64,000 nucleotides of DNA from Candidatus Omnitrophota bacterium. Lineage in GTDB: Bacteria > Omnitrophota > Gorgyraeia > Zapsychrales > Zapsychraceae. Under the pieces are notes generated by a model, which saw only the letters and a program-made list of their open reading frames with translations, was not told the DNA's origin and ran no database searches. The first letter of the stretch is position 1, and each line of letters starts with the position of its first letter. The position numbers and the translations under genes are program-made. Shown one piece after another: positions 24,815 through 61,427 of this stretch. The stretch spans positions 551-64,550 of the forward strand of contig JAGVNC010000028.1 in assembly GCA_020053475.1 (NCBI GenBank), read 5' to 3'.

Positions 24815-24820
24815 AAAAAA

Positions 24821-29449: not shown

Positions 29450-29521
29450 AGGCGCGAATCGGAATCGAACCGATGTATAGTGGTTTTGCAGACCACTGCC
29501 TTACCACTTGGCTATCGCGCC
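29450..29521 (-). tRNA. tRNA-Cys (anticodon GCA).
   Basis: Reverse complement GGCGCGAUAGCCAAGUGGUAAGGCAGUGGUCUGCAAAACCAC...GGUUCGAUUCCGAUUCGCGCCU, with discriminator U. Confidence 0.85.
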
Positions 29522-29536
29522 ACGTTCAAATATCAA

Positions 29537-31127: not shown

Positions 31128-31949
31128 TTACTCGACGTTTTGTGCCTGTTCGCGGATTTTTTCTACTTTTCCTTTCAGGGCAATCACCTGATTGGAAACA
31201 ATTTTATCTTGTAATTTGGACCCGATGGTGTTGGTTTCCCGCTGCATTTCTTGAGCAATAAAGTCAATTTTCTTGCCAATCGCCGCAGAACTTTTCAACA
31301 GAATCTTCATCTCTTCGACATAATGCCTGAGCCGCATCAACTCTTCGCTGACATCGTTACTTTTACGAAAAGAAACGATTTCATCATGCGTTAATATTTT
31401 TTGCTTCTCACGTAAAATATGGCCATAGCGCCCTTGAATTTTTTGGATCCGCTGTTGCATGCGCCGTAAAAGGACATTAATGTCCGCCGCCAAACTCTTG
31501 CCTTCCCGCAGGCGCATGCGTACCAAATCGTTCAAGGCTTGATCGATAGAACGACGGAACGCCGGCCATATCGCATCTGGGTCGATGAATGTTTCCTTGG
31601 CCTCAACAACACCCGGGAGCTTGACGACATCCGACAATGTTAGATCATTTTCAAACCCAAATTCACGCTCTAGTTGATGAATAAACTTTAAATGTTGACG
31701 GACAATATCTTTGTTTAACGATACAGCAATGGTGGGTTTTTCGATAATTTTAAAATTGACCGTAATGCGCCCCCGTTCGATGTGTTTTTGCAACAAGCTG
31801 CGCAAACGATCTTCGAATGCGGCGAATCCCCCGGGAAGATAAAATGTCACATCAAAATAGCGGTGATTCAATGTTTTGATTTCGACCAACGCCCTTAACT
31901 TTCCAACGGCCACTTCTTTGGTACCAAACCCTGTCATCCCCTTAATCAT
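31128..31949 (-). CDS. yicC: YicC-family protein (YicC_N plus DUF1732), about 273 aa. Start MIKGMTGFG at 31947-31949; it overlaps the ndk stop codon.
   Basis: The MTGFG N-terminal motif is typical of YicC. Confidence 0.7.
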   Translation of the reverse strand: MIKGMTGFGTKEVAVGKLRALVEIKTLNHRYFDVTFYLPGGFAAFEDRLRSLLQKHIERGRITVNFKIIEKPTIAVSLNKDIVRQHLKFIHQLEREFGFENDLTLSDVVKLPGVVEAKETFIDPDAIWPAFRRSIDQALNDLVRMRLREGKSLAADINVLLRRMQQRIQKIQGRYGHILREKQKILTHDEIVSFRKSNDVSEELMRLRHYVEEMKILLKSSAAIGKKIDFIAQEMQRETNTIGSKLQDKIVSNQVIALKGKVEKIREQAQNVE

Positions 31950-32434
31950 GAACGTCCCTTCGCTTTTGATTGTTGAATATGTTGAGAAAAGCCGCGCACT
32001 TCCGCCGGGGTAAACCATAAGCGTATTTCCCGTCGCGCCTCTTTCGCATTCGACGAAACATGGACAACATTTTCATAAACGCCTTTGGTCGTGATGCGCC
32101 CAAACGCCCCTCGAATGCTGCGCGGGTTGGCTTCCTCGGGGTTCGTGGCGCCGGCAATGGCCCGGCAGCGTTTGATGGCCTGGTCTCCATAATACACCAT
32201 CACCAAAACACTCCCAATCCCATTTAATTTTCCCGACAAATAATTAATAATCTCTTCGAAAAAAGGCTTGTTCCTTAATTGTTCATAATGCGCCGCGGCC
32301 AACGCCCGCGTAACTTTCGCCATCTTAATCCCGACGAGTCTTAAAAAAGGAGTGTCGTAACGATCCAAGACGGGGCCGATGAGCCCTCGCTGAATGCCGT
32401 CCGGCTTAATAATGACTAAGGCTGATTCGTTCAT
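31946..32434 (-). CDS. ndk: Nucleoside diphosphate kinase, 162 aa.
   Basis: LVIIKPDG... and NVVHVSS (the active-site His region), with a short C-terminal extension. Confidence 0.8.
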   Translation of the reverse strand: MNESALVIIKPDGIQRGLIGPVLDRYDTPFLRLVGIKMAKVTRALAAAHYEQLRNKPFFEEIINYLSGKLNGIGSVLVMVYYGDQAIKRCRAIAGATNPEEANPRSIRGAFGRITTKGVYENVVHVSSNAKEARREIRLWFTPAEVRGFSQHIQQSKAKGRS

Positions 32435-33288
32435 TTGTGCGAAATGGTTCTAACAATGCGATCCAGATCTTCTAGCGAATAATATTCGATCATGATTTTC
32501 CCGCGCTTCACTCCTCCGGCGATCGTCACCTTGGTCCCTAAAAGTTTTTGTAGCCCTTCTTGGAGAGTCGCGATCTGGGGGTGTTGTGCCATCGATCGTT
32601 TTTGTCGACGAGACTCTGGTTTTCCGGCGTTGACCAAGCGTTCCGTTTCACGCACGGACAATTGTTTTTTGACAATCAATTGATAAATCCTCTTCATCTC
32701 GGACGTTGAGTCCGCGGACAATAACGCCCGGGCGTGCCCGACGGAAACAACATCTCCGTAAAGGCTTTTCTTAATCTCTTCGGGTAAATTCAGCAAGCGC
32801 AGCATGTTGGTGATCGTCGAGCGGTCTTTCGCGACCGATTGGGCGACTTCGTCATGTGTGTAATGGAACTCCTCAATCAATTTTTTATAGGCTTCCGCCT
32901 CTTCCATCGGATTTAATTCCTGCCGCTGAATGTTTTCAATCAAGGCAATCACCAAGGCTTCCCTGTCAGTCACATCTTTGACAATGGCCGGTACTTGCGT
33001 TAACCCCAACGCGCGCGCTGCTTTTAATCGTCTTTCTCCGGCAATGATTTCATATCCCGTATCGGTGCGACGAACCAATATCGGCTGCAAAACACCTTTC
33101 TCTTTAATCGACGCTTTTAATTCATCGAGCTTGTTCCCATCATAATTTGTCCGCGGCTGAAGACGACTGTCTTTGATGAGTTCAACTTGTAAAAAATTCA
33201 CCCCATCTTCCTTTGAAGCCGTGGCCTTTTCGGGAATGAGCGCCGCTAATCCTTTTCCCAATGCTTTTGACATGATCACATCCTCCAA
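32431..33288 (-). CDS. parB: Chromosome partitioning protein ParB (Spo0J), 285 aa.
   Basis: ParB-box motif IIAGERRLKAARALG and an HTH. Confidence 0.9.
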   Translation of the reverse strand: MEDVIMSKALGKGLAALIPEKATASKEDGVNFLQVELIKDSRLQPRTNYDGNKLDELKASIKEKGVLQPILVRRTDTGYEIIAGERRLKAARALGLTQVPAIVKDVTDREALVIALIENIQRQELNPMEEAEAYKKLIEEFHYTHDEVAQSVAKDRSTITNMLRLLNLPEEIKKSLYGDVVSVGHARALLSADSTSEMKRIYQLIVKKQLSVRETERLVNAGKPESRRQKRSMAQHPQIATLQEGLQKLLGTKVTIAGGVKRGKIMIEYYSLEDLDRIVRTISHK

Positions 33289-33330
33289 GTGTTCAATAAT
33301 TGAACATTATTTAACATCCCCAATATTCAT

Positions 33331-34137
33331 TTAGGCCTCAGCCTTGACATTTCCCAACTTATTGGTATTAAATGATTTATATTCTTTTAAAAATTCGCGC
33401 GCGAGTTCATCATATTTCTTAGAGCCGATCGATGCTGGATCGTATTGATTAATCGGCTTCCCAAAGCTGGGCGCTTCACTTAATTTAACATTGCGAGGAA
33501 TAATCGCTTTGTAGACTTTATCTTTAAAATGATTTTTAATTTCATTAATCACTTCTTCGGTTAAGTTGGTACGAAAATCGGCCATCGTTAACAAAACGCC
33601 TTCGATGTGTAAATGAGGATTGAGGCTGTCTCGGATCAGACTAATTGTACTTAAAAGCTGTGATACCCCCTCTAGGGCGTAAAACTCACATTGGATGGGA
33701 ACAAGAATCGAATCGCACGCAACTAACGAATTCAAGGTTAAAAGGCCCAAAGATGGCGGCGAATCAATGAAGATGTAATCATATTGATCTTTGATTGAGT
33801 CCAAAGCTCTTTTGAGTCTTGTTTCGCGAGAAATGGCGCCGGCAAGTTCAATTTCGGCGCCGGTTAGATTGATATTACAAGGAAGGATTGAAAGGTTGGG
33901 ATAGGCGGTTTGAAGAATGACATCGGCGATTTGCGATCTATTAAGTAGAATCTCGTAAACAGAGGATCCTAATTCATTTTTGTTGACCCCAATCCCGCTA
34001 GTTGCATTCCCCTGCGGATCAGCATCGACAATAAGCACCTTTTTGCCTAATTCGGCTAAAGCTGCGGATAAATTAACCGTTGTTGTTGTCTTTCCTGTGC
34101 CGCCTTTTTGATTACAAATGCTTATAATCTTGCCCAT
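33331..34137 (-). CDS. parA: Chromosome partitioning ATPase ParA (Soj), 268 aa.
   Basis: Deviant Walker A motif CNQKGGTGKTTT. Confidence 0.9.
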   Translation of the reverse strand: MGKIISICNQKGGTGKTTTTVNLSAALAELGKKVLIVDADPQGNATSGIGVNKNELGSSVYEILLNRSQIADVILQTAYPNLSILPCNINLTGAEIELAGAISRETRLKRALDSIKDQYDYIFIDSPPSLGLLTLNSLVACDSILVPIQCEFYALEGVSQLLSTISLIRDSLNPHLHIEGVLLTMADFRTNLTEEVINEIKNHFKDKVYKAIIPRNVKLSEAPSFGKPINQYDPASIGSKKYDELAREFLKEYKSFNTNKLGNVKAEA

Positions 34138-34146
34138 AGTTTGAGA

Positions 34147-34210
34147 TCCCGTGGAAGGAAAAACCTTCCCGGGATTTTAAATCCCTGAAATCGCAAAGCG
34201 ATTTCAGAGG
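34147..34210. repeat. Triple-hairpin repeat element, copy 3, 10 nt upstream of the parA start.
   Basis: tcccgtggaaggaaaaaccttcccgggattttaaatccctgaaatcgcaaagcgatttcagagga. Confidence 0.7.
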
Positions 34211-34211
34211 A

Positions 34212-34227
34212 TGTTTCACGTGAAACG
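34212..34227. promoter_or_regulatory. parS centromere site TGTTTCACGTGAAACG.
   Basis: 15/16 match to the canonical parS palindrome, upstream of parAB. Confidence 0.85.
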
Positions 34228-34248
34228 TTCATTTATCCAAGATTGGCA

Positions 34249-34264
34249 TGTTTCACGTGAAACA
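34249..34264. promoter_or_regulatory. parS centromere site TGTTTCACGTGAAACA, a perfect consensus.
   Basis: Perfect match to the canonical 16-nt parS, 37 nt from the first site. Confidence 0.9.
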
Positions 34265-34302
34265 TTACCGATAATTCTATTTTCTATGAATTCAGAGAAA
34301 AA

Positions 34303-34509
34303 TCAAGAAAATTGTTGTTTTTCTTTAATGGAGACTTTTATTTTGGCGGGCTTGGCACCCTCCATCCCGAAAAGGCCCTTCTTTTCTTCGCAGACGATCT
34401 TGACGACAATATCATCCCGGGTGACATTAAGAAGCTTAACCGCTTTCTCAATGGCCTCTTCTACGTCACCCCCTTCAACCTCTATGCTTTTGGACACTTT
34501 TTTTCTCAT
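34303..34509 (-). CDS. Jag/KhpB N-terminal-domain-only protein, 68 aa, with no KH or R3H domains.
   Basis: MRKKVSKSIEVEGGDVEEAIEKAVKLLNVTRDDIVVKIVCEEKKGLFGMEGAKPAKIKVSI resembles the Jag_N domain. It occupies the jag position downstream of yidC. Confidence 0.5.
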   Translation of the reverse strand: MRKKVSKSIEVEGGDVEEAIEKAVKLLNVTRDDIVVKIVCEEKKGLFGMEGAKPAKIKVSIKEKQQFS

Positions 34510-36125
34510 GCGATAACCGGTTGATTCTTGTACATCCGATATTGGGTAATCGTGGAAAAAATATAAAACATCGTAAAATATAGCGTCAATCCGCTCGCAA
34601 ATTTATAGAAAATGAACCCCATCATAATAGGCATCATGATCATCATCATTTTTTGCTGAGAAACCTGGGCCGCATCAGTCATTACCATGTTTTTGCTGGA
34701 AATCTTCTGCTGATAGAACATAATAAAAGCCATTAAAAGCGGCAGCAAATTGAGCTCATTGCCTATAATAGGTAAACTGTGCGGAAAAACAAACAAGCGA
34801 TCAGGCTCAGATAAGTCTTTGATCCACAAGAACTTAGCATTTTTAAAGGCTACTGATCGCCATAAAACCTGATAAAGTCCAATAAAAATTGGCATTTGAA
34901 ATAGAAACGGAAGGCATCCTCCAAAAGGGTTGATTTTCTCTCTTTTGTAAATCTCCATCATCTCTTGATTCATTTTTTGGGGATTATTCTTATATTTTTC
35001 CTTTAAACTCGCGATTTTAGGCTGGATGCCCTGAATTTTCTTCATGGATAACATCCCGCGGATCGTCAACGGGTATGTCACCAAATAAATAAGGCTGCTA
35101 ATGAGAATAATGACGATTCCCCAATTGGGGATAAATTTATAGAAGGCATGCATCGCAGAATAAATGATCTTGGCAATCCCATCAAACAAGCCAAAACGGT
35201 AAAACATCTGGATTTTTTCAAATCCTTCTTTGTATTTGCGCAAAAGCCTGATCTCTTCGGGGCCCGTATAAATAAGGCTATCAAAAACAGCCGTCCCTGC
35301 GCTTTCAATATTCTCGTCGGGAGAATGAATCGACACCTTTAGGTGGTGTTCATCCAAGGCATTGATTTTGTAACCAAATGTCTCGTAGCGCGGCTTGATG
35401 ATTGTGCAGAAATATTTATTTCGAAAACCGACCCATTCAATCGCTTCATTGGCTTCTTTATTTTCCTTATCGGAAAATTTAAAAGCGTTGTTCTTCCTTA
35501 TAGTTGAATTTTTAGCGAAGACAACGTATTCATTGAGAGGTTTATCAGTATCCCGTGTTTTGGGATTGTTTTGATTGGACATATCCAATTCATAACCAAT
35601 TGTCGAGCCATTAATCAGTTTGGACATTTCTGACTTATTAATGATCTTGGTCTTTGTTTGGATTATAAATTCTCCTTGGACAATTTCATAAATTCTTTCT
35701 ATTTTAATATCACTTGATTCCCATTCATATTTGATAAAGTTTTCTCTTAACTCACTTGCATTATAAATATTTGAATCAAAGCTCAGCAAATAGTTAATGC
35801 TTGTTAAAGGAAAAGAGACCCGATATTCCTTTAAGCGAATATTTTTAATCGTCCCTCCAATATTAGAAAATTCAACGATCAGCTTGTCCGATTCCAAAGT
35901 ACTTATTTGTTCATTGTCTATTGGCTTAAGCACAACTGTATTTTGCTCAACCGGGAAAGAAGGAGGGCGAGAGGAAGGACTGGTCGCCGTTGAATCCGCA
36001 ACTTGTTTATTATCAACAACTTGTGTTGTTTCTTTTAGCGGGCGCCTAGGCGGAGGGAATAAAACAGACCACGCAAACAAAACAAGAAAAGATAAGACAA
36101 CGGGAATGATTAATCGTTTTTCCAT
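34506..36125 (-). CDS. yidC: Membrane protein insertase YidC, 539 aa.
   Basis: N-terminal TM helix, a periplasmic domain and the conserved C-terminal 5-TM YidC/Oxa1 core. Confidence 0.9.
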   Translation of the reverse strand: MEKRLIIPVVLSFLVLFAWSVLFPPPRRPLKETTQVVDNKQVADSTATSPSSRPPSFPVEQNTVVLKPIDNEQISTLESDKLIVEFSNIGGTIKNIRLKEYRVSFPLTSINYLLSFDSNIYNASELRENFIKYEWESSDIKIERIYEIVQGEFIIQTKTKIINKSEMSKLINGSTIGYELDMSNQNNPKTRDTDKPLNEYVVFAKNSTIRKNNAFKFSDKENKEANEAIEWVGFRNKYFCTIIKPRYETFGYKINALDEHHLKVSIHSPDENIESAGTAVFDSLIYTGPEEIRLLRKYKEGFEKIQMFYRFGLFDGIAKIIYSAMHAFYKFIPNWGIVIILISSLIYLVTYPLTIRGMLSMKKIQGIQPKIASLKEKYKNNPQKMNQEMMEIYKREKINPFGGCLPFLFQMPIFIGLYQVLWRSVAFKNAKFLWIKDLSEPDRLFVFPHSLPIIGNELNLLPLLMAFIMFYQQKISSKNMVMTDAAQVSQQKMMMIMMPIMMGFIFYKFASGLTLYFTMFYIFSTITQYRMYKNQPVIA

Positions 36126-36127
36126 AG

Positions 36128-36334
36128 TTAAACCGGATCGTAACCACCCTTAAAAAGGGGGTTGCATTTCAATATTCGCAAAAAGGCCTTCGTTAAGCCA
36201 CGGCCTAGGCCATATTTACTCACAGCATCGAGGGCGTATTGGGAGCAGGAAGGGGTAAATCGACAAGCTGGAGGGAACAGCTGGCGACTAACGCATTGAT
36301 ATCCTTTGACAAGCGCCCGAAAGATAACGGCCAT
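36128..36334 (-). CDS. yidD: Membrane protein insertion efficiency factor YidD, 68 aa.
   Basis: Cys-rich small protein [11 protein letters not shown] typical of YidD. Confidence 0.85.
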
Positions 36335-36361
36335 GGATTAGTTCTCCCGCTGATGCTTGGC

Positions 36362-36496
36362 TTAAGCGACTCGCTTGCGGCCCTTGGCGCGTCTTCGGTT
36401 CAACGTTTTTCGTCCGCTTTTACTGCGCATCCTCTTACGAAAACCGTGTCGTCTTTTTCCCTTAATATTTGTTCGCGCTTTTAAATGCTTTTTCAT
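36362..36496 (-). CDS. rpmH: 50S ribosomal protein L34, 44 aa. It is below the ORF-track length cutoff.
   Basis: Minus-strand translation MKKHLKARTNIKGKRRHGFRKRMRSKSGRKTLNRRRAKGRKRVA matches the L34 family. Confidence 0.85.
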   Translation of the reverse strand: MKKHLKARTNIKGKRRHGFRKRMRSKSGRKTLNRRRAKGRKRVA

Positions 36497-36991
36497 AGTT
36501 GGACAATTATAACATAGAGCTTTAGGGAGTCAAGGTCTTTCCTTTTTTAGAGGCTCAAAACGTTTGTAAATACAAATAGTTACGGCAATTTTGGAATCAT
36601 CATCCTTCCGACGAGAATCATGGTTGAGTGCCCTTCGGCGCGTTTTGGAAGAAAGAATCTGTCCTTCAATCACTTGCCATCCCGGGGCCGAGGAAAAATT
36701 AATTTGAAATAAAAATTTTCTTTGTTATAATAAAACAACTTTCTGGGATGATCATTCTTTTGTCGCGTAAAATATTGCAAACTTTCCGGATCAATAGAAA
36801 TTTTGCTGTCAACCAAAACATTTTGTGCGCCCTTAAGCGATTGTGAGTCTAAAAAGTTTTGGGCATCGGTTTTGTTTTAGGGTAATTCAGGCTATTCACC
36901 CCTGTGGATAACCTGTGAAAATCTTTTTTAAAAGACTGCAAGGCTATATTTATCAAATATTTACGCTATTAGAATATTTGCATTGCTTTGA
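36497..36991. other. oriC: Candidate oriC region upstream of dnaA. It has a perfect DnaA box TGTGGATAA at 36904-36912, degenerate boxes, and AT-rich stretches around 36695-36745.
   Basis: Consensus 9-mer, the rpmH-dnaA intergenic position, and the flip of gene-strand bias exactly here. Confidence 0.6.
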
Positions 36992-38344
36992 TTGAATGAG
37001 TTCATTATGAGTTTATCCAACGTTTGGAAAAAAGCCCAAGACATGATCAAAGAGAAGGTAGGGACAACCTCTTATGATACATGGTTCTCGACGCTGCAAG
37101 TGAAGGAACAATCCCCGCAAACTCTGGTGATCGAAACCCCGGATGAATTTTTTAAAAGTTGGATTGTCGAACATTATCAACCCTTTATTGATGAAACCAT
37201 CCATTCTTTGCACGAAGGCCCTATTAAGATTGAATATACGGTGAACACCGATTTAATCGAAAAAACCACTCAATCCCGCTTATCGAAATTTGAGCAAACA
37301 TTCGTTGAAGACAAATCGCCGAAAGCGGTATTAAATGCCCGCTTTACGTTTGAAAATTTTGTCATTGGGCCGTCTAATCGATTTGCGTGCGCCGCAGGAT
37401 TAGCCGTCGCCGAGGCCCCGGCCAAAGCATATAACCCTTTCTTTGTGTATGGCCAAGTTGGGTTAGGGAAAACCCATCTGATTCAAGCAATTACCCATAA
37501 AATCCGCCAGCTTAACCCCAGCGCAAAAATTTGTTATATTACCTCGGAGCGGTTCACGAACGAGCTGATTGAGGCGATTCGCCATCAATCCACGCCGAAC
37601 TTTCGGAAAAAATATCGGGAAATTGACGTTTTGCTCATTGATGACATTCATTTTATTGCCGGCAAAGAATCGACCCAGGAAGAATTCTTCCACACGTTTA
37701 ACGCGTTGCATGATAATCGAAAACAAATCATTATTACATCCGATCGGCCGCCCAAAGAAATCACCAACTTAGAAGAACGGCTGCGTTCACGCTTTGCCTG
37801 GGGACTGATTGCCGATGTTCAGCCTCCGGACTTTGAAACGCGCGTGGCAATCTTGCGTAAAAAAATCGAAAAAGAACCCATCCATGTTCCCGACGACGTT
37901 ATTTATTTTATTGCCGAACAGGTGCCCACCAATATTCGTGAACTAGAGGGGGCGTTGATTCGTGTGGCCGCTTATTCATTGTTGGAAGACAAGGTGATTT
38001 CGCTGGAGATGACCAAAGTCGTTCTCAAAGACATGGTGAAGGAGGCCACGAAAATTATTAGTATGGAGATGATCCAAAAATCCGTAGCCAACCATTACCA
38101 GATTTCATTGGCTGAGTTACGCGCCAAACGTCGAAATAAGAACATTGTTTTCCCCCGGCAAATGGCAATGTATTTAGCGCGCCAATTAACGAAAATGTCG
38201 TTACCGGAGATTGGGAACTCTTTTGGCGGGAAAGATCACACAACGGTCTTACATGCCTGTAAAAAGATTGAGCAAGAAATGTTGAAAAGTACCGACATTA
38301 AACACACGATCCTTGAGTTAACTTTAGTTATTAAGAACCCTTAG
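36992..38344 (+). CDS. dnaA: Chromosomal replication initiator DnaA, 450 aa. It may instead start at the Met at 37007.
   Basis: AAA+ Walker A GQVGLGKTHL and the C-terminal DnaA-box-binding domain. Confidence 0.95.
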   Translation: MNEFIMSLSNVWKKAQDMIKEKVGTTSYDTWFSTLQVKEQSPQTLVIETPDEFFKSWIVEHYQPFIDETIHSLHEGPIKIEYTVNTDLIEKTTQSRLSKFEQTFVEDKSPKAVLNARFTFENFVIGPSNRFACAAGLAVAEAPAKAYNPFFVYGQVGLGKTHLIQAITHKIRQLNPSAKICYITSERFTNELIEAIRHQSTPNFRKKYREIDVLLIDDIHFIAGKESTQEEFFHTFNALHDNRKQIIITSDRPPKEITNLEERLRSRFAWGLIADVQPPDFETRVAILRKKIEKEPIHVPDDVIYFIAEQVPTNIRELEGALIRVAAYSLLEDKVISLEMTKVVLKDMVKEATKIISMEMIQKSVANHYQISLAELRAKRRNKNIVFPRQMAMYLARQLTKMSLPEIGNSFGGKDHTTVLHACKKIEQEMLKSTDIKHTILELTLVIKNP

Positions 38345-38494
38345 TCTAGATATCCAAAGGCATTGAACAATTAAAAAGGTTGTAAGTTATTAGAAAAAAA
38401 TATTTTATATTTTTATTAGATTTATCCACAGGCCCTATTACTAAGGCTACTAATTGTTCTTATTAAAATATATAAGTAGGAGGTTGTTAATAAT
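38345..38494. other. AT-rich dnaA-dnaN intergenic region with a perfect DnaA box TTATCCACA at 38422-38430, a candidate DNA-unwinding element and second origin module.
   Basis: Read directly. The 150-nt segment is very AT-rich. Confidence 0.5.
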
Positions 38495-39583
38495 ATGAAA
38501 ATTAAGTGTTCTAAGGATGTTTTAATGCAGGGAGTTCAGGCTGTCCAAAACGTTGTTTCGCCAAAAATTACATTACCTATTCTCTCTAATATTCTTTTAG
38601 AAACAAAAAAGAATACATTGTATTTAACGGCGACCGACTTAGATATTGGGATCTCTTGTGAAATTCCTGTGGAAGTAATTCTGGATGGGGCGATTACGGT
38701 TCCCGCCAAGCGATTTAGCGATATTATTAAGGAGCTGCCTTCCGGAGATGTGGTGGTCCATGCGAAGAAAAATTATCAGGTGGATATTGAAGGCAATAAT
38801 TTTCGATTTAAATTAATCGGGATGCCTAAAGACGAGTTTCCTAAATTCCCCGAGTTTAAAGAAAAAGACATTATTTCTATTGAGCAAAAAACATTAAAGG
38901 AAATGTTGCGGTTAACAAGTTTTGCCGTATCCCACGAGGAATCACGCTATGTCCTCAATGGTGTTCTTTTAGAGGTAGCGGAAAATAAAATCCGCCTCGT
39001 GGCGACCGATGGGAGACGGTTGGCTAAAATTGAAAGAGTCCTTTCTCATCCAACATCCAAAGAGATCACGGTCATCATCCCCATTAAAGCCATTCAGGAA
39101 ATCAATCGTAATTTGAAAGACGAAGGCAATGTGATATTAAGTGTGGGGCTAAATCAAGTGTTGTTTGATGTTGGAGGGATTCTGATTGCCACGCGCATTA
39201 TTGAAGGGGAATTCCCTAATTATCAACAAGTCATCCCAAAATCGCAAGCGGAGAAAATCGTCATGAACCGCCAGGATTTTTTGTCATCGATCCGCCGGGC
39301 GAACCTATTGTCCACGCCGGATTTCCAGGCGGTTAAATTCGAAGTATTTAATAATAAAATGGTGATTTCCAAAACAACACCCGAGGTCGGGGAGTCGCGA
39401 GAAGAGATCCCCATCGAATACGGAGGCTCAGAGCTGGTGGTGGGGTTTAATCCGCATTTTATGATCGATGTGTTAAAAAATATCGAAGAAGAGCAAATTC
39501 ATTTGGAGCTATTGGGGACCGATAAGCCGGGCATCATCCGCCTCAAAGATTATTTATATCTGGCCTTGCCGATGCGTATTTAA
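38495..39583 (+). CDS. dnaN: DNA polymerase III beta sliding clamp, 362 aa.
   Basis: Three-domain beta-clamp sequence with RBS AGGAGG. Confidence 0.9.
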   Translation: MKIKCSKDVLMQGVQAVQNVVSPKITLPILSNILLETKKNTLYLTATDLDIGISCEIPVEVILDGAITVPAKRFSDIIKELPSGDVVVHAKKNYQVDIEGNNFRFKLIGMPKDEFPKFPEFKEKDIISIEQKTLKEMLRLTSFAVSHEESRYVLNGVLLEVAENKIRLVATDGRRLAKIERVLSHPTSKEITVIIPIKAIQEINRNLKDEGNVILSVGLNQVLFDVGGILIATRIIEGEFPNYQQVIPKSQAEKIVMNRQDFLSSIRRANLLSTPDFQAVKFEVFNNKMVISKTTPEVGESREEIPIEYGGSELVVGFNPHFMIDVLKNIEEEQIHLELLGTDKPGIIRLKDYLYLALPMRI

Positions 39584-53677: not shown

Positions 53678-54505
53678 ATGAATTTAGAGAATAAAAAACA
53701 AATCGCGACATTGTTGTTAGCGGTGGCACTTGGATTAGCCGCGGCTGTATTTACCAGCGATTATGTGACAAAGAGCATTAATAAACAAACGACCGCGTTG
53801 GCCAAAAATTATGACAAAAAGACGGAAGAGATCAAGAAAGAACTGGCCCTGACACAGAAGGCGTTGGATCAGTTGGCCAAAAATCAAAAAGTCTTGGCCG
53901 ACAGGCCTGCCCAGGTTGCCGCGGGAGGGCCGGAAAGGCAAATGACACCAGCGGGTGTCCTCTCCGCGCGAACACCTCCGGGGAAAAGAGCATTGACCAT
54001 TAATGTCGACACCCTTTCCGCCGTTGGAGGATTATTAAATCCCGGAGACCGCGTCGATATTATCGCTGATTTACAAATTCCCGATTCCCGTGATCCCAAA
54101 GCGGAACCGGATAAAGTCACATCCGTCTTGTTTCAAGATGTCCTTGTCCTTGCCGTAGGAACGAATTTTCAGCCGGTGACAACGGCCGAAGGGTATGATG
54201 CGCGTGCAAAAGCACGTTCGTTACAGATCACCCTGGCCCTAGACCCGGAAGAGGCTTCTTTAATCACGTTTTCCCAGAAATATGGCAAAATGCAACTAAC
54301 GTTGCGCCCACCGTCGGATGAGGGCGTGCAAAATATGGAAGTGGCTTCCTGGGATTCATTGGCCGATTTTGTCTTGGAAAGGCAAGGAACGGAGCTGATT
54401 GTCCCTAGGTCAAAGGCAAGAATTCAAACAGATGATACAGGGAAAAAAGAAACCAAAGACACAGAAGCCTTTATTCAAATTTTTAAGGGAGGCAAAGAGC
54501 AATAA
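53678..54505 (+). CDS. cpaB: Flp pilus assembly protein CpaB/RcpC (SAF domain), 275 aa.
   Basis: N-terminal TM helix and the SAF-like LTINVDTLSAVGGLLNPGDRVDIIADL. Confidence 0.75.
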   Translation: MNLENKKQIATLLLAVALGLAAAVFTSDYVTKSINKQTTALAKNYDKKTEEIKKELALTQKALDQLAKNQKVLADRPAQVAAGGPERQMTPAGVLSARTPPGKRALTINVDTLSAVGGLLNPGDRVDIIADLQIPDSRDPKAEPDKVTSVLFQDVLVLAVGTNFQPVTTAEGYDARAKARSLQITLALDPEEASLITFSQKYGKMQLTLRPPSDEGVQNMEVASWDSLADFVLERQGTELIVPRSKARIQTDDTGKKETKDTEAFIQIFKGGKEQ

Positions 54506-54508: not shown

Positions 54509-56332
54509 ATGGAAACTAAACGAGCGTTTAAAACATTGGCTTTACTGAAGATGAGCGTTGTGATGGGCGCATTTTTCCTTTTGGGTTTATCCGCACCGGC
54601 CCAGGCTCGCGTTGATGCCACAACGAACGAAGTCAACCTTCTTATCGGGGAATTAGAAACCATCGACGTTAAATCATTAACGCGCCTTTCGATTACGGAC
54701 CCCAAAGTGGTTGACATTGTTGAGGCCAAAGAAAGCGAGATTCTGATTATTGCCAAAGCCATCGGGCAAAGCGCTTTATTTGTTTGGGATGAAAACGGGA
54801 AACGCACTGTTCTCGTTAACGTGGCGGCCCAAAACTTAGGATTAATCTCGCAGCGGCTTGAAAAACTTTTTTCCTCGGTCCATATCGACAATGTTACCGT
54901 TGAAGTTAATGGGAAAGAGGGAAAAGTTGTCTTGACCGGTCAAATTTTCGAAGATAAAAAAGATCAGTTTGATCAGGTCATTGCCCCCTTCAATCGAGAC
55001 ATCATTAATCTCGTCAAGGTAGAAAAATCCGAAGATTTAATTGAGGTGGATATCCAGATTACGGAATTAACGACAACCTTGACGAAAGCCATCGGCATCG
55101 ACTGGGCATCTTCCAGCACGGGGCCCTCGATCTCTGGGTTGGGCGCCGGCGGCCTTTTGGCGCCAACATTTTCTGAAAATGTGCCCAGCGTTGATGGATC
55201 AGTGGAAGATCTTTTTAAGATTGGGAATTTTCAACGCACGTATCAGTTGATTGCCATGATTAACGCCTTATTAGAAGAAGGGAAGGCGCGGATCCTCTCT
55301 AAACCGAAGCTTGTTGTCGTCAGCGGAGAAGAAGCCAGTTTTAATGTCGGAGGAGAAATTCCGATCCGTACGACAACCACATCACAAGGTTCTACCCAAG
55401 AAAATGTGACATTTAAGAAATTTGGGATAGGGATGACGATTACGCCTACAATTAAAAAAGGGAAAATTGATTTATTGATGGAAGTTGAAGTTAGCGATAT
55501 TGATTCTGCCAACAAGGTCGGGGACAATGTGGCCTTTACGACACGCAATGCCCAAACAAGATTATATTTAGACAACGGCCAGCCCATCGTCATTGCAGGA
55601 TTGATAAAGAAGCGCGAGTCGGAATTGGTCAAAAAAGTTCCATTTTTAGGAGAAATTCCTATCATTGGGATTTTGTTTAGAAGCAAGTCGACTCCGTCAG
55701 CCAATGAAGACCAGGAACTAGTTATTTCTCTGACGCCGTTAATCCTCAATTCAGAATATAATTCTGCGATGATATCGAAAATTACTCCCCCATTGGAAGT
55801 AGCCGATGAGCCTCAAAAAGAACCAATGGACGATGATGATGTGGTTGCGGATGATGCTGATGATGCTGATGATGTGGATGCCGATGCGGATTTGGATGTG
55901 GATGAAACTGAAGAACCGTTGAGTTGGGATGACGAAACAATGCAAATGGATCCTAGTCCTGCGGTGGCGGCAAATGAAAGTCAATCTTCTACACAAATTA
56001 CTCCTGAAGAAAAATCTTCAGAGAATGATGGCTTTCCTGCGGGGATGAAAGATTATATTCAGGCGATTCAACAGCAGATTTCTAGCACGATCCAATATCC
56101 TCCCGAAGCGGAAGAATATGGTTGGGAGGGAACTGTCAGGCTAGGATTGCTCATCTTACACGACGGGACATTAGCGCTTGCTTCCATCAAGGAGTCCTCA
56201 GGGCATAAAATTTTTGACGAATACGCTCTTAATACGGCCAAAGAATTGGCCCCTTATTTAAGTTTCCCTCCTGAAACAGACCTGCAGGAATTAAATGTTA
56301 CGATTCCCATTGTGTATACCGTGGCCCGATAA
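54509..56332 (+). CDS. cpaC: Tad-type secretin (CpaC/RcpA family), 607 aa, with a polyacidic linker and a C-terminal TonB_C-like domain.
   Basis: Signal peptide and a secretin core (ARILSKPKLVVVSGEEASFNVGGEIPI...LTPLILNS). The acidic run DDDDVVADDADDADDVDADADLDVDETEE is followed by YPPEAEEYGWEGTVRLGLLILHDGTL...SSGHKIFDEYALNTAKE, which matches the TonB C-terminal consensus. Confidence 0.75.
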   Translation: METKRAFKTLALLKMSVVMGAFFLLGLSAPAQARVDATTNEVNLLIGELETIDVKSLTRLSITDPKVVDIVEAKESEILIIAKAIGQSALFVWDENGKRTVLVNVAAQNLGLISQRLEKLFSSVHIDNVTVEVNGKEGKVVLTGQIFEDKKDQFDQVIAPFNRDIINLVKVEKSEDLIEVDIQITELTTTLTKAIGIDWASSSTGPSISGLGAGGLLAPTFSENVPSVDGSVEDLFKIGNFQRTYQLIAMINALLEEGKARILSKPKLVVVSGEEASFNVGGEIPIRTTTTSQGSTQENVTFKKFGIGMTITPTIKKGKIDLLMEVEVSDIDSANKVGDNVAFTTRNAQTRLYLDNGQPIVIAGLIKKRESELVKKVPFLGEIPIIGILFRSKSTPSANEDQELVISLTPLILNSEYNSAMISKITPPLEVADEPQKEPMDDDDVVADDADDADDVDADADLDVDETEEPLSWDDETMQMDPSPAVAANESQSSTQITPEEKSSENDGFPAGMKDYIQAIQQQISSTIQYPPEAEEYGWEGTVRLGLLILHDGTLALASIKESSGHKIFDEYALNTAKELAPYLSFPPETDLQELNVTIPIVYTVAR

Positions 56333-56444: not shown

Positions 56445-58607
56445 ATGCAGGCAAAAACGATAACAATTTTTAGCAATAAAGGCGGTGTCGGCAAAACATT
56501 TGTCACCGTCAATACCGGCACAGCCATGGCCGTGGCTAACCACAAAGTCTTGATTTTAGATTTTGACTTTCAGGCAGGTCAAGATATGGCGCGGATGTTG
56601 AACATCGCCCCCAAACATGCCTTGGTCGATATTTTCCCCGTCTTGGAATCTTCCGATGATCCGCAGTTGATCTACAAATACGTTTCCGTTCATTCCAGCG
56701 GCGTGCATTTTTTGCCAGCCGTAAAAAATACCCGGCAGATCGGGCATATCACGCCCGACAACATCAAGCCTTTCTTAAAGAAAATAGCCTCCGCTTATGA
56801 TTTTATTCTTATTGACGCGGGAAAATCTTTTAGTGAAACGTTGATAACGGTTTTGGATTATTCCAACCTGATCCTGTTGGTCGCGACGCCGGATATTTTG
56901 GCGGTTTATAACATTAAGTGGTGTTTAGACGTTTTGCAGAGCCTGCAGTTTCCTAACAAAATGGTTAAGCTCGTATTAAACCGTTCCGAAAGCCGCGGGA
57001 GCGTGGCTTGGCAAGAGGTCCGGTCAGCGTTGCCTTGTGAAATTCTGACTCATATCCCTTCCGACGGAAAAACAGTCGGGATGGCTTTAAACCGGGGAAT
57101 TCCTTGCGTGGTCGATGCGCCTAAAAGCCGTGTGGCTGAATCGTTCTTTCGCCTGGCTTCACTTTTCGAAAAAGATGATATGTTTGTTGCGGCGACGGAG
57201 GTTGAGAAACAAAGGACAACGGATGAATTTGCCAAACCCGGGGCTTTTTGGGAAAAATTCGGCATCACCCAAGCCATGGGAATGTCGTTGCCGGGGATTT
57301 CTTTTGCCACGGAAGAAGATGAGGTCATCGTGTTAAAAAGGAAAATTCACGAGAAGCTCGTCAAGCGGCTCAATTTAGACGGGATTACGCCCGAAGCGTT
57401 AAACGATCCGATTGCCGCCCAAGGGATCAAGAGAAATGCCGAAGAGGTCGTGGCCAATATGTTGACGGAAGAGGCGGGCGGGATGCTGGCCGCGCACGAG
57501 GAACGCGTTCGGCTGGTCAAGGATATTGTCAATGAAGCGTTAGGCCTCGGCCCGCTGGAAGATTTTTTGGCGGATCCGGACGTGACCGATATTATGGTCA
57601 ACAGCCGTGATCAGATTTATGTGGAAAAAAGCGGCAAACTTATTTTGACGAATAAAAAATTTATTTCTGATGAAAAAATGCGGTCCGTCATTGAGCGTAT
57701 CATTGCGCCCTTGGGCCGTCGCATCGATGAATCGACACCCATGGTGGATGCGCGCCTTCCTGACGGATCCCGGATCAATGCCATTATCCCCCCTTTGTCC
57801 TTAAATGGCCCGATGATTACCATTCGTAAATTCGGCCAGGAACGTTTGACCGCTGAAGATCTTCAGCACCGATTTCATTCGCTCAATCAAGCCATGCGCG
57901 ATTTTTTGCAAGCTTGTGTTTTAGGCAGAAAGAACATCATTGTTTCCGGTGGAACCGGCGCCGGGAAAACGACATTATTGAATGTCATTTCGGAATTTAT
58001 TCCAGACAACGAACGGTTGATTACCATTGAGGACGCCGCCGAATTGAAGCTGAAAAAAAGCCATTGGGCGAGATTAGAGTCGCGCCCGTCGAACATCGAG
58101 GGCCGCGGACAGGTCACGATCCGCGATTTGTTTATTAACAGTTTGCGGATGCGCCCGGACAGGATTGTCATCGGCGAATGCCGCGGGGCGGAGGTGTTGG
58201 ACATGCTTCAGGCCATGAACACGGGCCACGACGGATCATTAACAACGCTGCACGCCAACTCCACCAAGGACGTTTTAGTCCGGATGCATTCGATGATCCT
58301 GTTAAGCGGGATTGAATTGCCTGTGCGCGCCATCAATGAAATGGTGGCCTCGGCCATTGATATCATTGTCCATGTCGCTCGGTTTTCTGACGGAACCCGG
58401 AAAATAACGGGAATTTCTGAAGTGACGGGGCTCAGTAAAGATTTTCAGTGCGAGCTTGAGGACGTTTTTGTTTTCAAGCAAACAGGCCTCGACAGCGATG
58501 GCAAAATTTTGGGGAGTTATCAGCCGACAGGATATATTCCCATTTGCTATGAAGATTTCGCGACGCGCGGATTACCGATCGATCGAAGTATTTTCTTGAA
58601 GGCTTAA
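56445..58607 (+). CDS. Fused TadZ/CpaE-like ParA-family ATPase (N-terminal) and TadA/CpaF secretion ATPase (C-terminal), 720 aa.
   Basis: N-terminal deviant Walker A FSNKGGVGKTFVTVN. C-terminal GGTGAGKTTLLN plus T2SSE-family motifs (His box TLHANS). Confidence 0.75.
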   Translation: MQAKTITIFSNKGGVGKTFVTVNTGTAMAVANHKVLILDFDFQAGQDMARMLNIAPKHALVDIFPVLESSDDPQLIYKYVSVHSSGVHFLPAVKNTRQIGHITPDNIKPFLKKIASAYDFILIDAGKSFSETLITVLDYSNLILLVATPDILAVYNIKWCLDVLQSLQFPNKMVKLVLNRSESRGSVAWQEVRSALPCEILTHIPSDGKTVGMALNRGIPCVVDAPKSRVAESFFRLASLFEKDDMFVAATEVEKQRTTDEFAKPGAFWEKFGITQAMGMSLPGISFATEEDEVIVLKRKIHEKLVKRLNLDGITPEALNDPIAAQGIKRNAEEVVANMLTEEAGGMLAAHEERVRLVKDIVNEALGLGPLEDFLADPDVTDIMVNSRDQIYVEKSGKLILTNKKFISDEKMRSVIERIIAPLGRRIDESTPMVDARLPDGSRINAIIPPLSLNGPMITIRKFGQERLTAEDLQHRFHSLNQAMRDFLQACVLGRKNIIVSGGTGAGKTTLLNVISEFIPDNERLITIEDAAELKLKKSHWARLESRPSNIEGRGQVTIRDLFINSLRMRPDRIVIGECRGAEVLDMLQAMNTGHDGSLTTLHANSTKDVLVRMHSMILLSGIELPVRAINEMVASAIDIIVHVARFSDGTRKITGISEVTGLSKDFQCELEDVFVFKQTGLDSDGKILGSYQPTGYIPICYEDFATRGLPIDRSIFLKA

Positions 58608-58615: not shown

Positions 58616-58960
58616 ATGCCGCAGATTTTTAATAAAACAAAGAATACACTCGTTGCTTCCCAGGCCAAAATGGCCCAAAATTTCCTTGCCCGCATGGTCG
58701 GCCTTCTCAACCGGTCTTCGTTGTCCCCCCAAGAAGCCCTGATTATTCCCCATTGCCAATCGATTCATATGTTCTTTATGCGTTTTCCCATTGATGTTAT
58801 TTTCGTGGATAGCGAAAATAAAGTTGTGCATCTTCTAAAGAATATCCGGCCTTTTCAGCTCAGTCCCATCATTTTTTCTTCCTTCTATGCCATCGAAATG
58901 GCTGTGGGCGGCATTGAAACGTCGCGCACAGCGGTTGGCGATTTCCTCTTGCTAGAATAA
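58616..58960 (+). CDS. DUF192 (COG1430) protein, 114 aa.
   Basis: IHMFFMRFPIDVIFVD is the characteristic DUF192 core. Confidence 0.55.
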   Translation: MPQIFNKTKNTLVASQAKMAQNFLARMVGLLNRSSLSPQEALIIPHCQSIHMFFMRFPIDVIFVDSENKVVHLLKNIRPFQLSPIIFSSFYAIEMAVGGIETSRTAVGDFLLLE

Positions 58961-59041
58961 TCCTTCGGTAAAGTGATCGATGGACATTAAAATTGTGCTA
59001 TACTGTATACGAAATGTCCAATCTGAAATAGTTAGGCTCCC

Positions 59042-60898
59042 ATGGGTGTTGTTTATAAACTAAAAGACGAAGTTCTTCAATTCATTATCCAGCAAAAAAA
59101 GGACATCCCTTCCTTGGGCGTGCGCCAATTGGCCGGCCTTGTCAGCACCAAATTCCACCTTCAAGTTTCGAAATCTTCCGTTAGCAATGTTTTAAAAGGC
59201 GCTCATTTAAGCAGCGGGGTGGGAAGAAGGGCCACGCAAGACCGGAAACAAAAAAAATTTAAAATCCCGACGCAGAAGAAGAAAGAGATTTCGGAGCACA
59301 TGCAAAAAATGGCCCTGGGCCGGGAGCCGGTGCTTTCCAAGGCCACGATCAGCGAAAAACCCGTTGAACACATGGCGCCCTCAGCTGAACCTGTCGAAGA
59401 GGTTCTGGCGAATGAGGATGAAAGCGAGATTTTGGAGAAAGAAATTCTTGTTGTCCCGCCAGTCCCGTCGGAGAAATCCCCAGGAATTGAAGCGGCCGAT
59501 CCCTTGAGGGAAGTTTCTTCTCTCCCGCCAACGCAATCTTCCAAAGATGTTTTTTATCAGCATGTTCGGGAGATTCAAGCGCGGCGCGTCGCGCAACAGG
59601 GGAAGCTTTATCAAGGGCTGGGATGTATTTTTCTAAAAGCCGCAGAATGGGAAGGGAATCAACACCCTTGGGATCAATTATTCGCTCAAGAATCAGGAGC
59701 GCTTTCGGATAATTTTTCGGGTACATTTTCCGCCCTCGCGATCGAAGCGTTTTTAACCAAAGAAGGGGCGAGCCGTAAGGACATGTTCAAAGAAGGAATT
59801 TTTGTCCTTAATGATTTAGACCCTGCAGCGCCACAGGCACAACATCGTTTTGATCAAATCGCCGGACTTGTCATCCCTGAGCCTGTTGTTTGGGAATACA
59901 CTGACCATCTTCAACAATTTTTTGCTCAAGCAGACCTGTTTCGTTGGGAATTAGAAGATGCAACGGAATTTTATACCGATCCAGGAGCGACTTTTTTAGA
60001 TGAGCAGGTTTCTTCGGGCGGGCTCGCCTTTCCTTTAAACAAGGCCTTGACGATTTTGTCCCGAGAGATCATTAGCAATAATCATCCGCTGATTTTATGC
60101 CAAGCCCCCGGCCAGCAGGCCATTGACGCGTGTTTCGATGATTTTTTAGGCGCGTTCGAAGGCCACTCGAATAAATCCATTGTTGCGCTCACCGTGCTCA
60201 ATGAGCACCAAGAAGAAGTCGCGATGTTTAACATCATTCCTCGTCGACGCCGAAATTTTATTTGCGGGCTGTGGCCGCACCTGAAGGAATTTAAAGAATT
60301 AACAAAGACCGTCAAGTGGGCCGCGAAACAACCCTTTTATGTTGAGCATGCGGATCGAATTGTCTATTCTGCCGCCACCCAAACAGATTATTTTGCGTCA
60401 CATTTATCGGAGAACCCCCGGCCCATGCGCTTGTTAACGCTTTGGAACGATGAACAAGCAGAGCCCTGCATGAGCATTCTGTGTAATGACATGGACATCG
60501 AGCCGCAAAAAATCCTGGATTTATATACAACGCGATGGCCTTATCTGGAAAGGCCTGCCTTGTTTAAAGAGGCTGGGGAGCCGCTACCTTTGATCCAAAA
60601 TGCGGATCAACATCATTCATTAGAATCGTTGGCGGGAAAATTTGGGGACATCCTCCACCAATACTGTTTAAGAAAGTTCTTTCCTTCATATCGGCGCTTA
60701 CCTTCGGCATCCTTAATTGAAAATATTTATGAAATGCCGGGATATGTGATCAAAACCCCTCAATCTTATCAAATTTTGTTAAAAACAAAGGGGAATGCGG
60801 AAAATCGCTTAGAAGAGCTTAAGGATGCTGTTCAGCGGCTAAATGAACACGGCATTGAGACAGGGGACGGGAAGAAGGTTTCAATCCTTATAATATAA
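59042..60898 (+). CDS. Large hypothetical protein, 618 aa. It has an N-terminal HTH-like segment, a Pro/Glu/Lys-rich linker and a C-terminal region containing the motif YTTRWPYLERP. An upstream TGcTATACT extended -10 lies inside the palindrome GGACATT-N24-AATGTCC.
   Basis: Read directly. No confident family was assigned. Confidence 0.45.
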   Translation: MGVVYKLKDEVLQFIIQQKKDIPSLGVRQLAGLVSTKFHLQVSKSSVSNVLKGAHLSSGVGRRATQDRKQKKFKIPTQKKKEISEHMQKMALGREPVLSKATISEKPVEHMAPSAEPVEEVLANEDESEILEKEILVVPPVPSEKSPGIEAADPLREVSSLPPTQSSKDVFYQHVREIQARRVAQQGKLYQGLGCIFLKAAEWEGNQHPWDQLFAQESGALSDNFSGTFSALAIEAFLTKEGASRKDMFKEGIFVLNDLDPAAPQAQHRFDQIAGLVIPEPVVWEYTDHLQQFFAQADLFRWELEDATEFYTDPGATFLDEQVSSGGLAFPLNKALTILSREIISNNHPLILCQAPGQQAIDACFDDFLGAFEGHSNKSIVALTVLNEHQEEVAMFNIIPRRRRNFICGLWPHLKEFKELTKTVKWAAKQPFYVEHADRIVYSAATQTDYFASHLSENPRPMRLLTLWNDEQAEPCMSILCNDMDIEPQKILDLYTTRWPYLERPALFKEAGEPLPLIQNADQHHSLESLAGKFGDILHQYCLRKFFPSYRRLPSASLIENIYEMPGYVIKTPQSYQILLKTKGNAENRLEELKDAVQRLNEHGIETGDGKKVSILII

Positions 60899-60923: not shown

Positions 60924-60953
60924 TTGACACTAAATAAAAAAATATGTTATACT
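60924..60953 (+). promoter_or_regulatory. Promoter of the Flp pilin gene array: -35 TTGACA (60924-60929), 18-nt spacer, -10 TATACT (60948-60953). It is followed by a structured leader of about 300 nt.
   Basis: Read directly. Confidence 0.55.
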
Positions 60954-61256
60954 CCTTCTATATCATAAGCCACGGGAAAGTTAGTAAAGAAAGAGGCAAT
61001 CTAGGACATTTGTAAATGTCTGAAACATCAATGGATATGATAAGCCTCCACGATTCCTGTGGGGGTTTTTGTTTGTAGGCCGTTCAACAATTTTTAAAAT
61101 GCTTATTACACCGCAAGGTGTCTTAATCCTTGATGGAACTACTTAAGTCAGGGAGGCAAAGCCCTAACAAGGTTTTACTATAGAGGCCCTTAAGGCTTCA
61201 TCCTCATTGTTTGAGGAGGGGTAACAATCATCTGTTCAACACATAAGGACAAGGCG

Positions 61257-61427
61257 ATGAAAGGCTTTTTAAGAATAATGGACCATTTAGACCGCAAAGG
61301 TCAAAACTTGATCGAATATGCCTTCGTCGCCTCTATCGTGATCGCTGCTGTTTTTGTCATGAGTACTTATGTGTTTCGTTCTGTCCAATCCACGCAACAG
61401 ATGATTCAAAAAGAAGCAATCAAGTAA
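61257..61427 (+). CDS. flp: Flp-family prepilin, 56 aa (leader MKGFLRIMDHLDRKG, then QNLIEY).
   Basis: G/XXXXEY processing motif followed by a 20-aa hydrophobic segment. Confidence 0.75.
   Translation: MKGFLRIMDHLDRKGQNLIEYAFVASIVIAAVFVMSTYVFRSVQSTQQMIQKEAIK

Follow-up and report, generated by a model that had tools for sequence, protein, structure and literature searches.

Domesticated transposon proteins that have turned into site-specific DNA binders are represented by TldR and by the RAYT/REPIN systems. TldR is a nuclease-dead, TnpB-like repressor of flagellin, which is RNA-guided and derived from RuvC/TnpB (PMC10705468). RAYTs are HUH/Y1 (IS200-like) enzymes that are still active on hundreds of intergenic palindromic REPINs (PMC8049555). 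By analogy, these systems appear conceptually closest to the gene addressed here, an open reading frame (ORF) at positions 59042-60898 on the plus strand of a 64-kb stretch of a Candidatus Omnitrophota genome (contig JAGVNC010000028.1). In the following, the ORF is called the target and the entire 64-kb stretch the window.

In Omnitrophota, which are uncultured and mostly ultra-small bacteria, the Tad pilus locus is regarded as a key to a life as predators or parasites (PMC10066038). The target protein is not mentioned in the Omnitrophota Tad-locus descriptions of PMC10066038 and bioRxiv 10.64898/2026.06.07.730766, and literature searches found no description of its family. An earlier note on this DNA had placed an orphan protein of 618 aa, possibly a domesticated transposase, inside a pilus locus. 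The ORF listing agrees exactly with this position and length, and the target is surrounded by Tad/Flp-type genes. The feature is real and does not represent an active insertion sequence (IS), the orphan label has to be dropped, and the interpretation is supported in part. What is new is a conserved system of a protein and a motif, located in the Tad locus of Omnitrophota and in yidC. With modest confidence, we regard the target as a cytoplasmic, sequence-specific DNA-binding protein, which is a fixed accessory part of the Omnitrophota Tad-like pilus locus and most likely a domesticated, inactive descendant of a DDE transposase.

A conserved motif at the target promoter and in coding sequences

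The comparisons rely on a synteny set of 44 loci from about 40 genomes (six loci found by exact-protein look-up and 37 more from GTDB species-representative genomes; labels of the form L0xx), all of which were probed with the proteins neighbouring the target in the window. The elements of the window that matter for the motif are the following:

58981..58987, minus strand: reverse copy of the motif core, TGGACAT (reverse complement of ATGTCCA), upstream of the -10 box
58996..59004, plus strand: extended -10 promoter-like element TGcTATACT, recognised from the sequence and from cross-locus upstream alignments, with a predicted function
59012..59026, plus strand: motif AAATGTCCAATCTGA, 14-15 nt, proposed operator, 25.3 bits, the best site in the window
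59042..60898, plus strand: target coding sequence (CDS), 618 aa, ATG at 59042, stop at 60898, supported by the ORF listing, homologs and synteny
34506-36125, minus strand: yidC, host of the second motif cluster (35570..35685)
35570-35584, minus strand: yidC motif copy, 17.2 bits
35615-35629, minus strand: yidC motif copy, 23.3 bits
35671-35685, minus strand: yidC motif copy, 11.4 bits

When the 130 nt upstream of the start codon were aligned across loci, AATGTCCAATCTG was found a few bases past a TGnTATAcT extended -10 box at most of them. A weight matrix was built from 33 upstream sites with a 7-mer as the seeded core, and its conservation extends well beyond this core (A31, A25, T27, C22, T20, G28 and A22 of 33), giving the consensus wAATGTCCAATCTGa. 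In the window, the transcript is predicted to start at about 59010. The motif covers approximately its positions +1 to +15 and ends 16 nt short of the ATG, and together with the reverse core copy it brackets the promoter. Strong sites, defined as those of at least 13 bits, were counted over 36 loci, and their density amounts to 5.4 per kb in the 200 nt preceding the target gene, 0.55 per kb inside the target CDS, 0.043 per kb in the tad genes upstream and 0.012 per kb from the pilin region onwards. A strong site is present upstream and/or in the CDS at 35 of 37 loci, and at about 30 of the 37 the motif lies 5-15 nt past the TGnTATAcT box, hence the target carries an operator-like site at its own promoter. 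The motif is conserved across species in which the target proteins share only 22-50% identity. Furthermore, L004 has no strong site, and the helix-turn-helix (HTH) of its protein is divergent (R28Q, N48H, LSS to VIT and VGR to RER). Strong reverse copies occur upstream of the promoter (-80 to -92) at L001 (19.4 bits), L007 (18.7 bits), L018 (18.8 bits) and L044 (22.2 bits), which speaks for an element that acts in the DNA rather than in the RNA.

Long, species-specific inverted-repeat inserts were noticed between the promoter/motif and the start codon at L003:9870-10000, L008:5870-6000 and upstream of the L024 and L027 targets. They consist, for example, of TATCAG/CTGATA arrays, CCAGT/ACTGG arrays or GGGGACAGTCCCC palindromes, and have the look of repetitive extragenic palindromic (REP) elements or hairpins.

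The motif is also found within coding DNA. At about 20 loci, one to three in-frame copies are located at +700 to +1060 of the target CDS, typically paired at a distance of 63-69 nt, and they encode N-V-Q-S at positions equivalent to aa ~322, ~346 and ~372 of the query. Their codon choice is strongly biased, since Val is GTC in 28 of 29 N-V-[Q/H] tripeptides (29% background) and Asn is AAT in 29 of 29 (73% background). Within the window, strong sites are confined to two places, the 5' end of the target and yidC. The ORF that hosts the second cluster was considered as a target paralog and rejected, because it is YidC and unrelated to the target. The yidC copies are read in a different frame (M-S-K/N-L), and 'MSK' and/or 'MSN' occupies equivalent positions in 93 of 119 Omnitrophota YidC homologs of 44-53% identity. 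In the yidC DNA of four other genomes, the motif pair lies at +490/+502 and +535/+547 with a spacing of exactly 45 nt, and the Ser codon is always TCC. All of the examined yidC genes belong to the arrangement dnaN-dnaA / rpmH-yidC-jag-parA-parB, beside the presumed origin. Additional copies were seen in the yidC/parA area at L046:3849-3863 and 4607-4621, L047:5670-5684 and L048:4583-4597; the L047 copy (22.5 bits) sits in the parA region, and the motif may have more origin-proximal sites.

Two trivial explanations were rejected. The motif is not a by-product of a conserved peptide, because it is present in non-coding DNA and in two reading frames, and because synonymous positions are fixed. 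A role as a DNA-uptake sequence or as a KOPS (FtsK-orienting polar sequence)-like element does not fit its rarity, with two clusters in 64 kb. As the yidC pair is kept in other genomes and in a different frame, the motif is a cis-element found across the phylum, which has been preserved inside coding DNA at two loci or more.

It is conceivable that the motif is the site of another factor or functions in the RNA, and that the target regulates the pilin array or the tad operon through other sites or through the pilin leader. The presence of the motif in yidC, which has no obvious link to the target, and the sense orientation of most copies with respect to the transcripts would be compatible with this, as would the location of the target, which is followed directly by a near-consensus pilin promoter and a structured leader that is conserved (see below). 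Nevertheless, the strong reverse copies at L001, L007, L018 and L044 do not fit an RNA element, the motif tracks the target across species at low identity and is missing where the HTH diverges, and no other conserved motif is common to the target flanks and the pilin promoter. We consider this explanation unlikely, if slightly more probable than the other alternatives.

Domain structure and ancestry of the target protein

The earlier note had pointed to a small HTH-like N-terminus followed by a Pro/Glu/Lys-rich linker, and both have been borne out. An AlphaFold2 model contains an N-terminal three-helix bundle (helices 9-21, 27-38 and 44-53) with a predicted local distance difference test (pLDDT) of 85-90. 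Residues 59-75 and 91-162 are disordered in it, whereas the C-terminal domain is modelled with confidence. The protein can be divided as follows:

59042..59215, plus strand: three-helix HTH, aa 1-58, with S43-K44-S45-S46-x-N48 in the recognition helix
59216..59287, plus strand: basic linear motif V-G-R-R...K-K-F-x-I-P-x-x-K-K, aa 59-82, seen in the alignment, in a disordered segment
59288..59533, plus strand: disordered P/E/K-rich linker, aa 83-164, pLDDT ~30-35, of variable length across the family (gappy columns)
59534..60898, plus strand: C-terminal globular domain, aa 165-618, a confident model for which the large-domain fold matches are weak and limited to Tn5 transposase
60464..60541, plus strand: signature 'P..ILCN-DMDIEPQKILDLYTTRWP', aa 475-500, recognised by hhalign and weak NCBIfam matches

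Residue conservation was derived from a 140-member family alignment. The HTH is by far the most conserved region of the family (M1-G2-V3, K6, K19, R28, S43-K44-S45-S46, N48, K52 and L56-S57), and K44, S45 and R62 are conserved in 100% of the members. Its fold matches the DNA-binding domains of transposases (HTH_32 / HTH_Tnp_Tc3_2), while the window protein itself stays below the Pfam gathering score (15.6 vs 33.7 bits); sub-threshold matches to these two models recur in 52 and 41 of 75 members, respectively, with a best E-value of 1.5e-6. The adjacent basic motif is likewise well conserved (G61 99%, R62 100%, F73 94%, I75 89%, P76 97% and K80 94%) in a segment with pLDDT below 50 at aa 59-75, and its role could be that of a minor-groove arm of the AT-hook/GRPR kind or that of a peptide contacting a partner. 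The share of P, E and K reaches 37% at aa 59-164, compared to 22% overall. Longer family members also exist, namely P0091, P0092 and P0097 (908-968 aa) and L028:4432-7368 (979 aa), in which 300-400 aa of extra sequence lie between the HTH and the C-terminal domain.

Descent from a transposase had been suggested on the basis of a YxxRW motif. In the signature region, N482 is conserved in 96%, [Y/F]495 in 97%, R498 in 70%, W499 in 84% and P500 in 89% of the members, and [Y/F]495-x2-R498-W499 aligns with 'YRLRW' of IS186. The YxxRW element (YTTRWPYLERP, aa 495-505) is thus real and family-wide, but the Glu that would complete the Y-(2)-R-(3)-E-(6)-K pattern is not, as the equivalent position is D/E in only 36% of the members and no conserved K follows. 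The signature aligns with the IS4/IS186 stretch 'LLLTS...SAEQVADCYRLRWQ' just before the catalytic E, and the family pattern 'P..aILTN..saeeIv..Y..RWP' aligns with 'HVLLLTSLPEDEYSAEQVADCYRLRWQ', immediately before the invariant catalytic E312 of IS186/IS4 transposases. HHalign comparisons with IS186 InsL and with a 35-member IS186/IS4 profile each returned one local match (P 0.008 and 0.004) at probabilities of 5-9%; the profile match spans 29 columns at 8.8% probability and does not establish whole-domain homology. Weak NCBIfam matches (IS4_1, IS4_4, IS701_3 and ISNCY_2) coincide with the signature, those of IS4_1 and IS4_4 at aa 440-499.

When modelled alone from a 75-sequence alignment, the C-terminal domain reached a pLDDT of 92.1 and a predicted template modelling score (pTM) of 0.92, and despite this quality Foldseek found no strong match among solved structures. 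Tn5 takes the first two places among the matches, which are collinear over ~450 columns and well separated from the next match at E 0.35, but they are weak (E 0.019 and 0.031), with a template modelling (TM) score of only 0.2. In addition, PF01609 (DDE_Tnp_1) gave no match at E<=10, and the NF033592 score of 11.3 bits falls far below the cut-off of 115. Four independent weak signals agree, therefore descent from a transposase is likely, though not established; a domesticated transposase is a plausible description, but none of the signals is significant for the whole domain. Whatever the ancestry, catalysis is very unlikely to judge from the alignment, because the DDE triad is not conserved, D313 (95%) and D306 (76%) are the only acidic residues kept, and the equivalent of the catalytic E is variable.

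A fixed place in the Tad locus

The target family is large and uncurated rather than orphan. A word-indexed search found 14 homologs, one of them 97% identical (in a Candidatus Omnitrophota metagenome-assembled genome, MAG) and the remaining ones 25-33% identical over the full length, while HMMER against 1.84 billion cluster representatives retrieved 659 proteins at E<=1e-3, 500 at E<=1e-10 and 151 at E<=1e-30. Apart from the weak HTH matches, no Pfam/NCBIfam model or PDB sequence covers the family, whether queried with the single sequence or with 15- and 75-member profiles. All of the loci come from Candidatus Omnitrophota or from MAGs deposited as 'uncultured Planctomycetales/Planctomycetia'. 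A check for synteny with flp arrays in related genomes, which the earlier note had recommended, found the genes in one and the same order as far as the contigs extend, namely (rotamase)-RcpC-secretin-ATPase-DUF192-TARGET-pilin array, and the target always lies between DUF192 and the pilin array, even at 22-35% target identity. The target has gone without annotation, yet it is a universal constituent of the Omnitrophota Tad locus, with essentially one locus per genome. MAG nzgw313 (JAHFGK01) holds two family members (L014 and L019), each with its own adjoining pilin array, which could mean two Tad loci or a mixed bin. In L023 (6001-7719), the target alone is inverted in place, on the plus strand, whereas the ATPase, DUF192 and pilin genes are on the minus strand; the target is therefore an autonomous transcription unit.

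An active or recently active IS inserted in the pilus locus might have been suspected from the transposase-type HTH and the IS4-like signature. However, in keeping with the earlier note, no terminal inverted repeats (TIRs) flank the target, there is no second copy in the 64-kb window at the protein or DNA level, and the gene is found at the identical position at 44 loci across deeply diverged species. The lost triad and a score of about a tenth of the curated transposase cut-off point the same way. With a fixed locus position, an autonomous unit and no TIRs, an active or recent IS is excluded; the idea is effectively refuted and its remaining probability is close to nil.

The target could instead be a cytoplasmic protein that assembles or scaffolds the Tad machine, has no role on DNA and carries its HTH as a vestige. 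The strict synteny with assembly genes would agree with this, and so would a C-terminal domain that is large, well folded and without strong structural relatives. Such a role appears improbable, as no other part of the protein is as conserved as the HTH, unlike a vestige, and as the target can be inverted in place as an independent transcription unit. Moreover, no signal peptide or transmembrane segment was found, and Pfam/NCBIfam searches detected no similarity to Tad components (CpaB/RcpC, CpaC/RcpA, CpaE/TadZ, CpaF/TadA, TadB/C, TadV or pseudopilins).

The neighbours of the target in the window are:

53678-54505: RcpC/CpaB, upstream of the target
54509-56332: secretin with a C-terminal TonB_C domain, upstream of the target
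56445-58607: ParA/MinD-like domain at aa 1-260, fused to a T2SSE/CpaF ATPase, 720 aa in total, upstream of the target
58616-58960: DUF192 protein, directly upstream of the target
from 61257: at least seven small Flp/class-III-signal-like ORFs, downstream of the target

The fusion of a ParA/MinD-like (CpaE/TadZ-type) domain to T2SSE/CpaF in the Tad ATPase is an architecture that is kept across the related Omnitrophota loci, and the same holds for the TonB_C-bearing secretin. At one locus, an inserted pair of PhdYeFM antitoxin and PIN toxin separates the target gene from the first Flp pilin (L003:11823-12484). After the pilin array, L001:14897-21409 and L004:14222-21197 contain conserved unannotated ORFs (~550 aa and ~80-100 aa) followed by a giant ORF of 1185-1483 aa and two T2SSF (TadB/C) genes; the window stops short of this part of the locus.

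Downstream of the target, a near-consensus promoter, TTGACA-N18-TG-n-TATACT (11/12 matches), begins 26 nt past the stop codon (window 60924-61259), and an equivalent is present at about 16 of 26 loci, among them L001, L010, L012, L021, L022, L030, L032, L038 and L044. It is separated from the highly conserved first Flp pilin by a leader of 160-650 nt. The final ~110 nt of the leader have in common a GCCC...GGGC helix that encloses a variable hairpin, as well as a conserved block 'GGGCAAGGATyrTCTGTwAACAC..AGG..ATG'. Rfam gave no match for the intergenic regions, including the pilin leader. On these sequence features, the leader is a candidate structured cis-regulatory RNA of the major pilin. 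A terminator-like hairpin (11 pairs) with a T-run at 61042-61077, ~90 nt past the start of the leader transcript, which is predicted at about 60960, could mark an attenuator or a short leader-derived RNA. A role of the motif as operator of the pilin promoter was rejected on account of the scarcity of strong sites downstream of the target. A half-site palindrome in the pilin leader of the window (61003-61025) was also discarded, since it is not conserved and occurs at 0.8 per kb, compared to ~1.0 per kb expected.

The second motif cluster falls into the chromosomal origin region (window 31128-39583), where the minus strand carries yicC, parB, parA and yidC and the plus strand carries dnaA and dnaN. 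Two of these genes matter here:

32431-33288, minus strand: the genuine ParB of the genome
36992-38344, plus strand: dnaA, ~17 kb away from the Tad locus

It is a familiar property of ParB/Spo0J that its parS sites lie inside coding sequences. By comparison, the target could be a ParB-parS-like DNA-binding adaptor rather than a classical transcription factor, marking a few origin-proximal loci (its own gene by the Tad locus and yidC by dnaA), with the basic peptide or the C-terminal domain contacting the ParA/MinD-like domain of the Tad ATPase and thereby coupling origin position to pilus placement or activity. The clustered, paired sites inside the coding sequences of the target and of an origin-proximal gene suit this idea, as do the strongly conserved basic linear motif in a disordered segment, the presence, at every locus, of a ParA-like domain on the T2SSE ATPase that is encoded two genes before the target, and the short distance between the Tad locus and dnaA in the window. 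Seymour et al. placed the Tad locus of V. archaeovorus LiM at 12382-29832 of CP019384.1 (PMC10066038), coordinates that hint at a possibly conserved origin proximity. On the other hand, no ParB_N/CTPase domain or ParB similarity was found in the target, the dominant site just past its own -10 box has the look of an autoregulatory operator, and a single genome is the only one in which the locus was directly observed to lie close to the origin. Altogether, the data are compatible with such an adaptor, but it seems rather unlikely. The bolder proposition is that a dead transposase serves as a ParB-like DNA anchor, which would recognise the 14-nt element within the coding sequences of its own gene and of yidC, engage the ParA/MinD-like domain of the Tad ATPase and physically couple the origin region to a predatory or adhesive pilus machine of these ultra-small cells; this is more doubtful still.

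Proposed mode of action and known systems

Under the reading preferred here, that of a domesticated transposase turned DNA-binding protein, the near-invariant HTH, aided by the adjacent GRR/KK basic arm, would recognise the motif wAATGTCCAATCTGa. One or two copies directly past the extended -10 promoter of the target itself, at times with an inverted copy upstream, would serve as binding sites, and occupancy there would block RNA polymerase or promoter escape, resulting in negative autoregulation. The C-terminal domain would have lost the ability to cut, and may have retained transposase-like oligomerisation and the synapsis of separate sites. In this manner, the promoter site could be bridged to the paired sites in the target CDS (63-69 nt apart, ~0.7-1.0 kb downstream), and the same kind of bridging could take place at the paired yidC sites near oriC. 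The paired and distant sites would then be explained by looping, similarly to lac O1-O2, or by bridging, similarly to ParB. The distribution of the motif and its conservation at the nucleotide level, the conservation of the HTH, the lack of TIRs and of a catalytic triad, and the single copy, autonomy and fixed position of the gene are all directly observed. From these we infer the binding of the motif by the target protein, the direction of the regulation, the bridging and the link to pilus function.

Several observations weigh against this model. The target gene of the window has no intragenic motif copies (best CDS score 7.8 bits), therefore the intragenic sites are not essential. The pilin promoter, leader and array lack the motif, which leaves the strict linkage of the target to the pilus locus unexplained. 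The presence of the motif in yidC means that it could belong to another, global factor. Finally, the protein-motif link consists of co-localisation and a single point of co-variation (L004), and is thus circumstantial.

If the target is indeed a dead transposase turned regulator, it would represent a rare case of DDE-transposase domestication in bacteria, one of ancient date that extends through the phylum and keeps to a single locus. The occurrence of the motif in coding sequence in two frames offers a concrete, testable protein-DNA pair in a phylum without genetics, and the motif provides a handle on the coordination of the pilus locus, yidC and possibly the origin region. The family also deserves a curated model, which would end the 'hypothetical' label or the confusion with a mobile element.

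Among known transposases, the HTH of the target resembles the DNA-binding domains of the IS630/Tc1-mariner (Tc3) group (HTH_32, HTH_Tnp_Tc3_2 and HTH_33), but the target has a single HTH unit instead of a bipartite paired-like domain, and its C-terminal domain is not a DDE_3/mariner catalytic core. Unlike the IS4/Tn5 (IS50)-type DDE transposases (PF01609; NCBIfam transpos_IS4_1/_4), it lacks a conserved DDE triad and TIRs, has a variable residue at the position of the catalytic E, scores far under the family thresholds, and is a vertically inherited single-copy gene with a fixed position in one locus. The target is not to be filed as an IS4/Tn5 transposase; it is at most a derivative.

As to site-specific binders, ParB-parS and lac O2 share with the target short conserved binding sites (here putative) inside coding sequences, in its own and in origin-proximal genes, and an arrangement of paired sites that suits bridging or looping. 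In contrast to ParB, the target has no ParB_N/CTPase domain, and its motif is asymmetric rather than a 16-bp palindrome. The RAYT/REPIN systems resemble it in combining a single-copy, vertically inherited, domesticated transposase gene with short DNA repeats nearby and elsewhere, whereas the motif of the target is rare, non-palindromic and often embedded in coding sequence. TldR and the target would both be transposon-derived proteins that have lost catalysis and become site-specific DNA binders (predicted in the case of the target) tied to a surface-appendage gene, flagellin for the former and the Flp pilus locus for the latter. They differ in that recognition by the target would be achieved by a protein HTH and its ancestry would be a DDE transposase. 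Furthermore, TldR represses the appendage gene itself, whereas the motif of the target is found at its own gene and in yidC, and not at the pilin genes.

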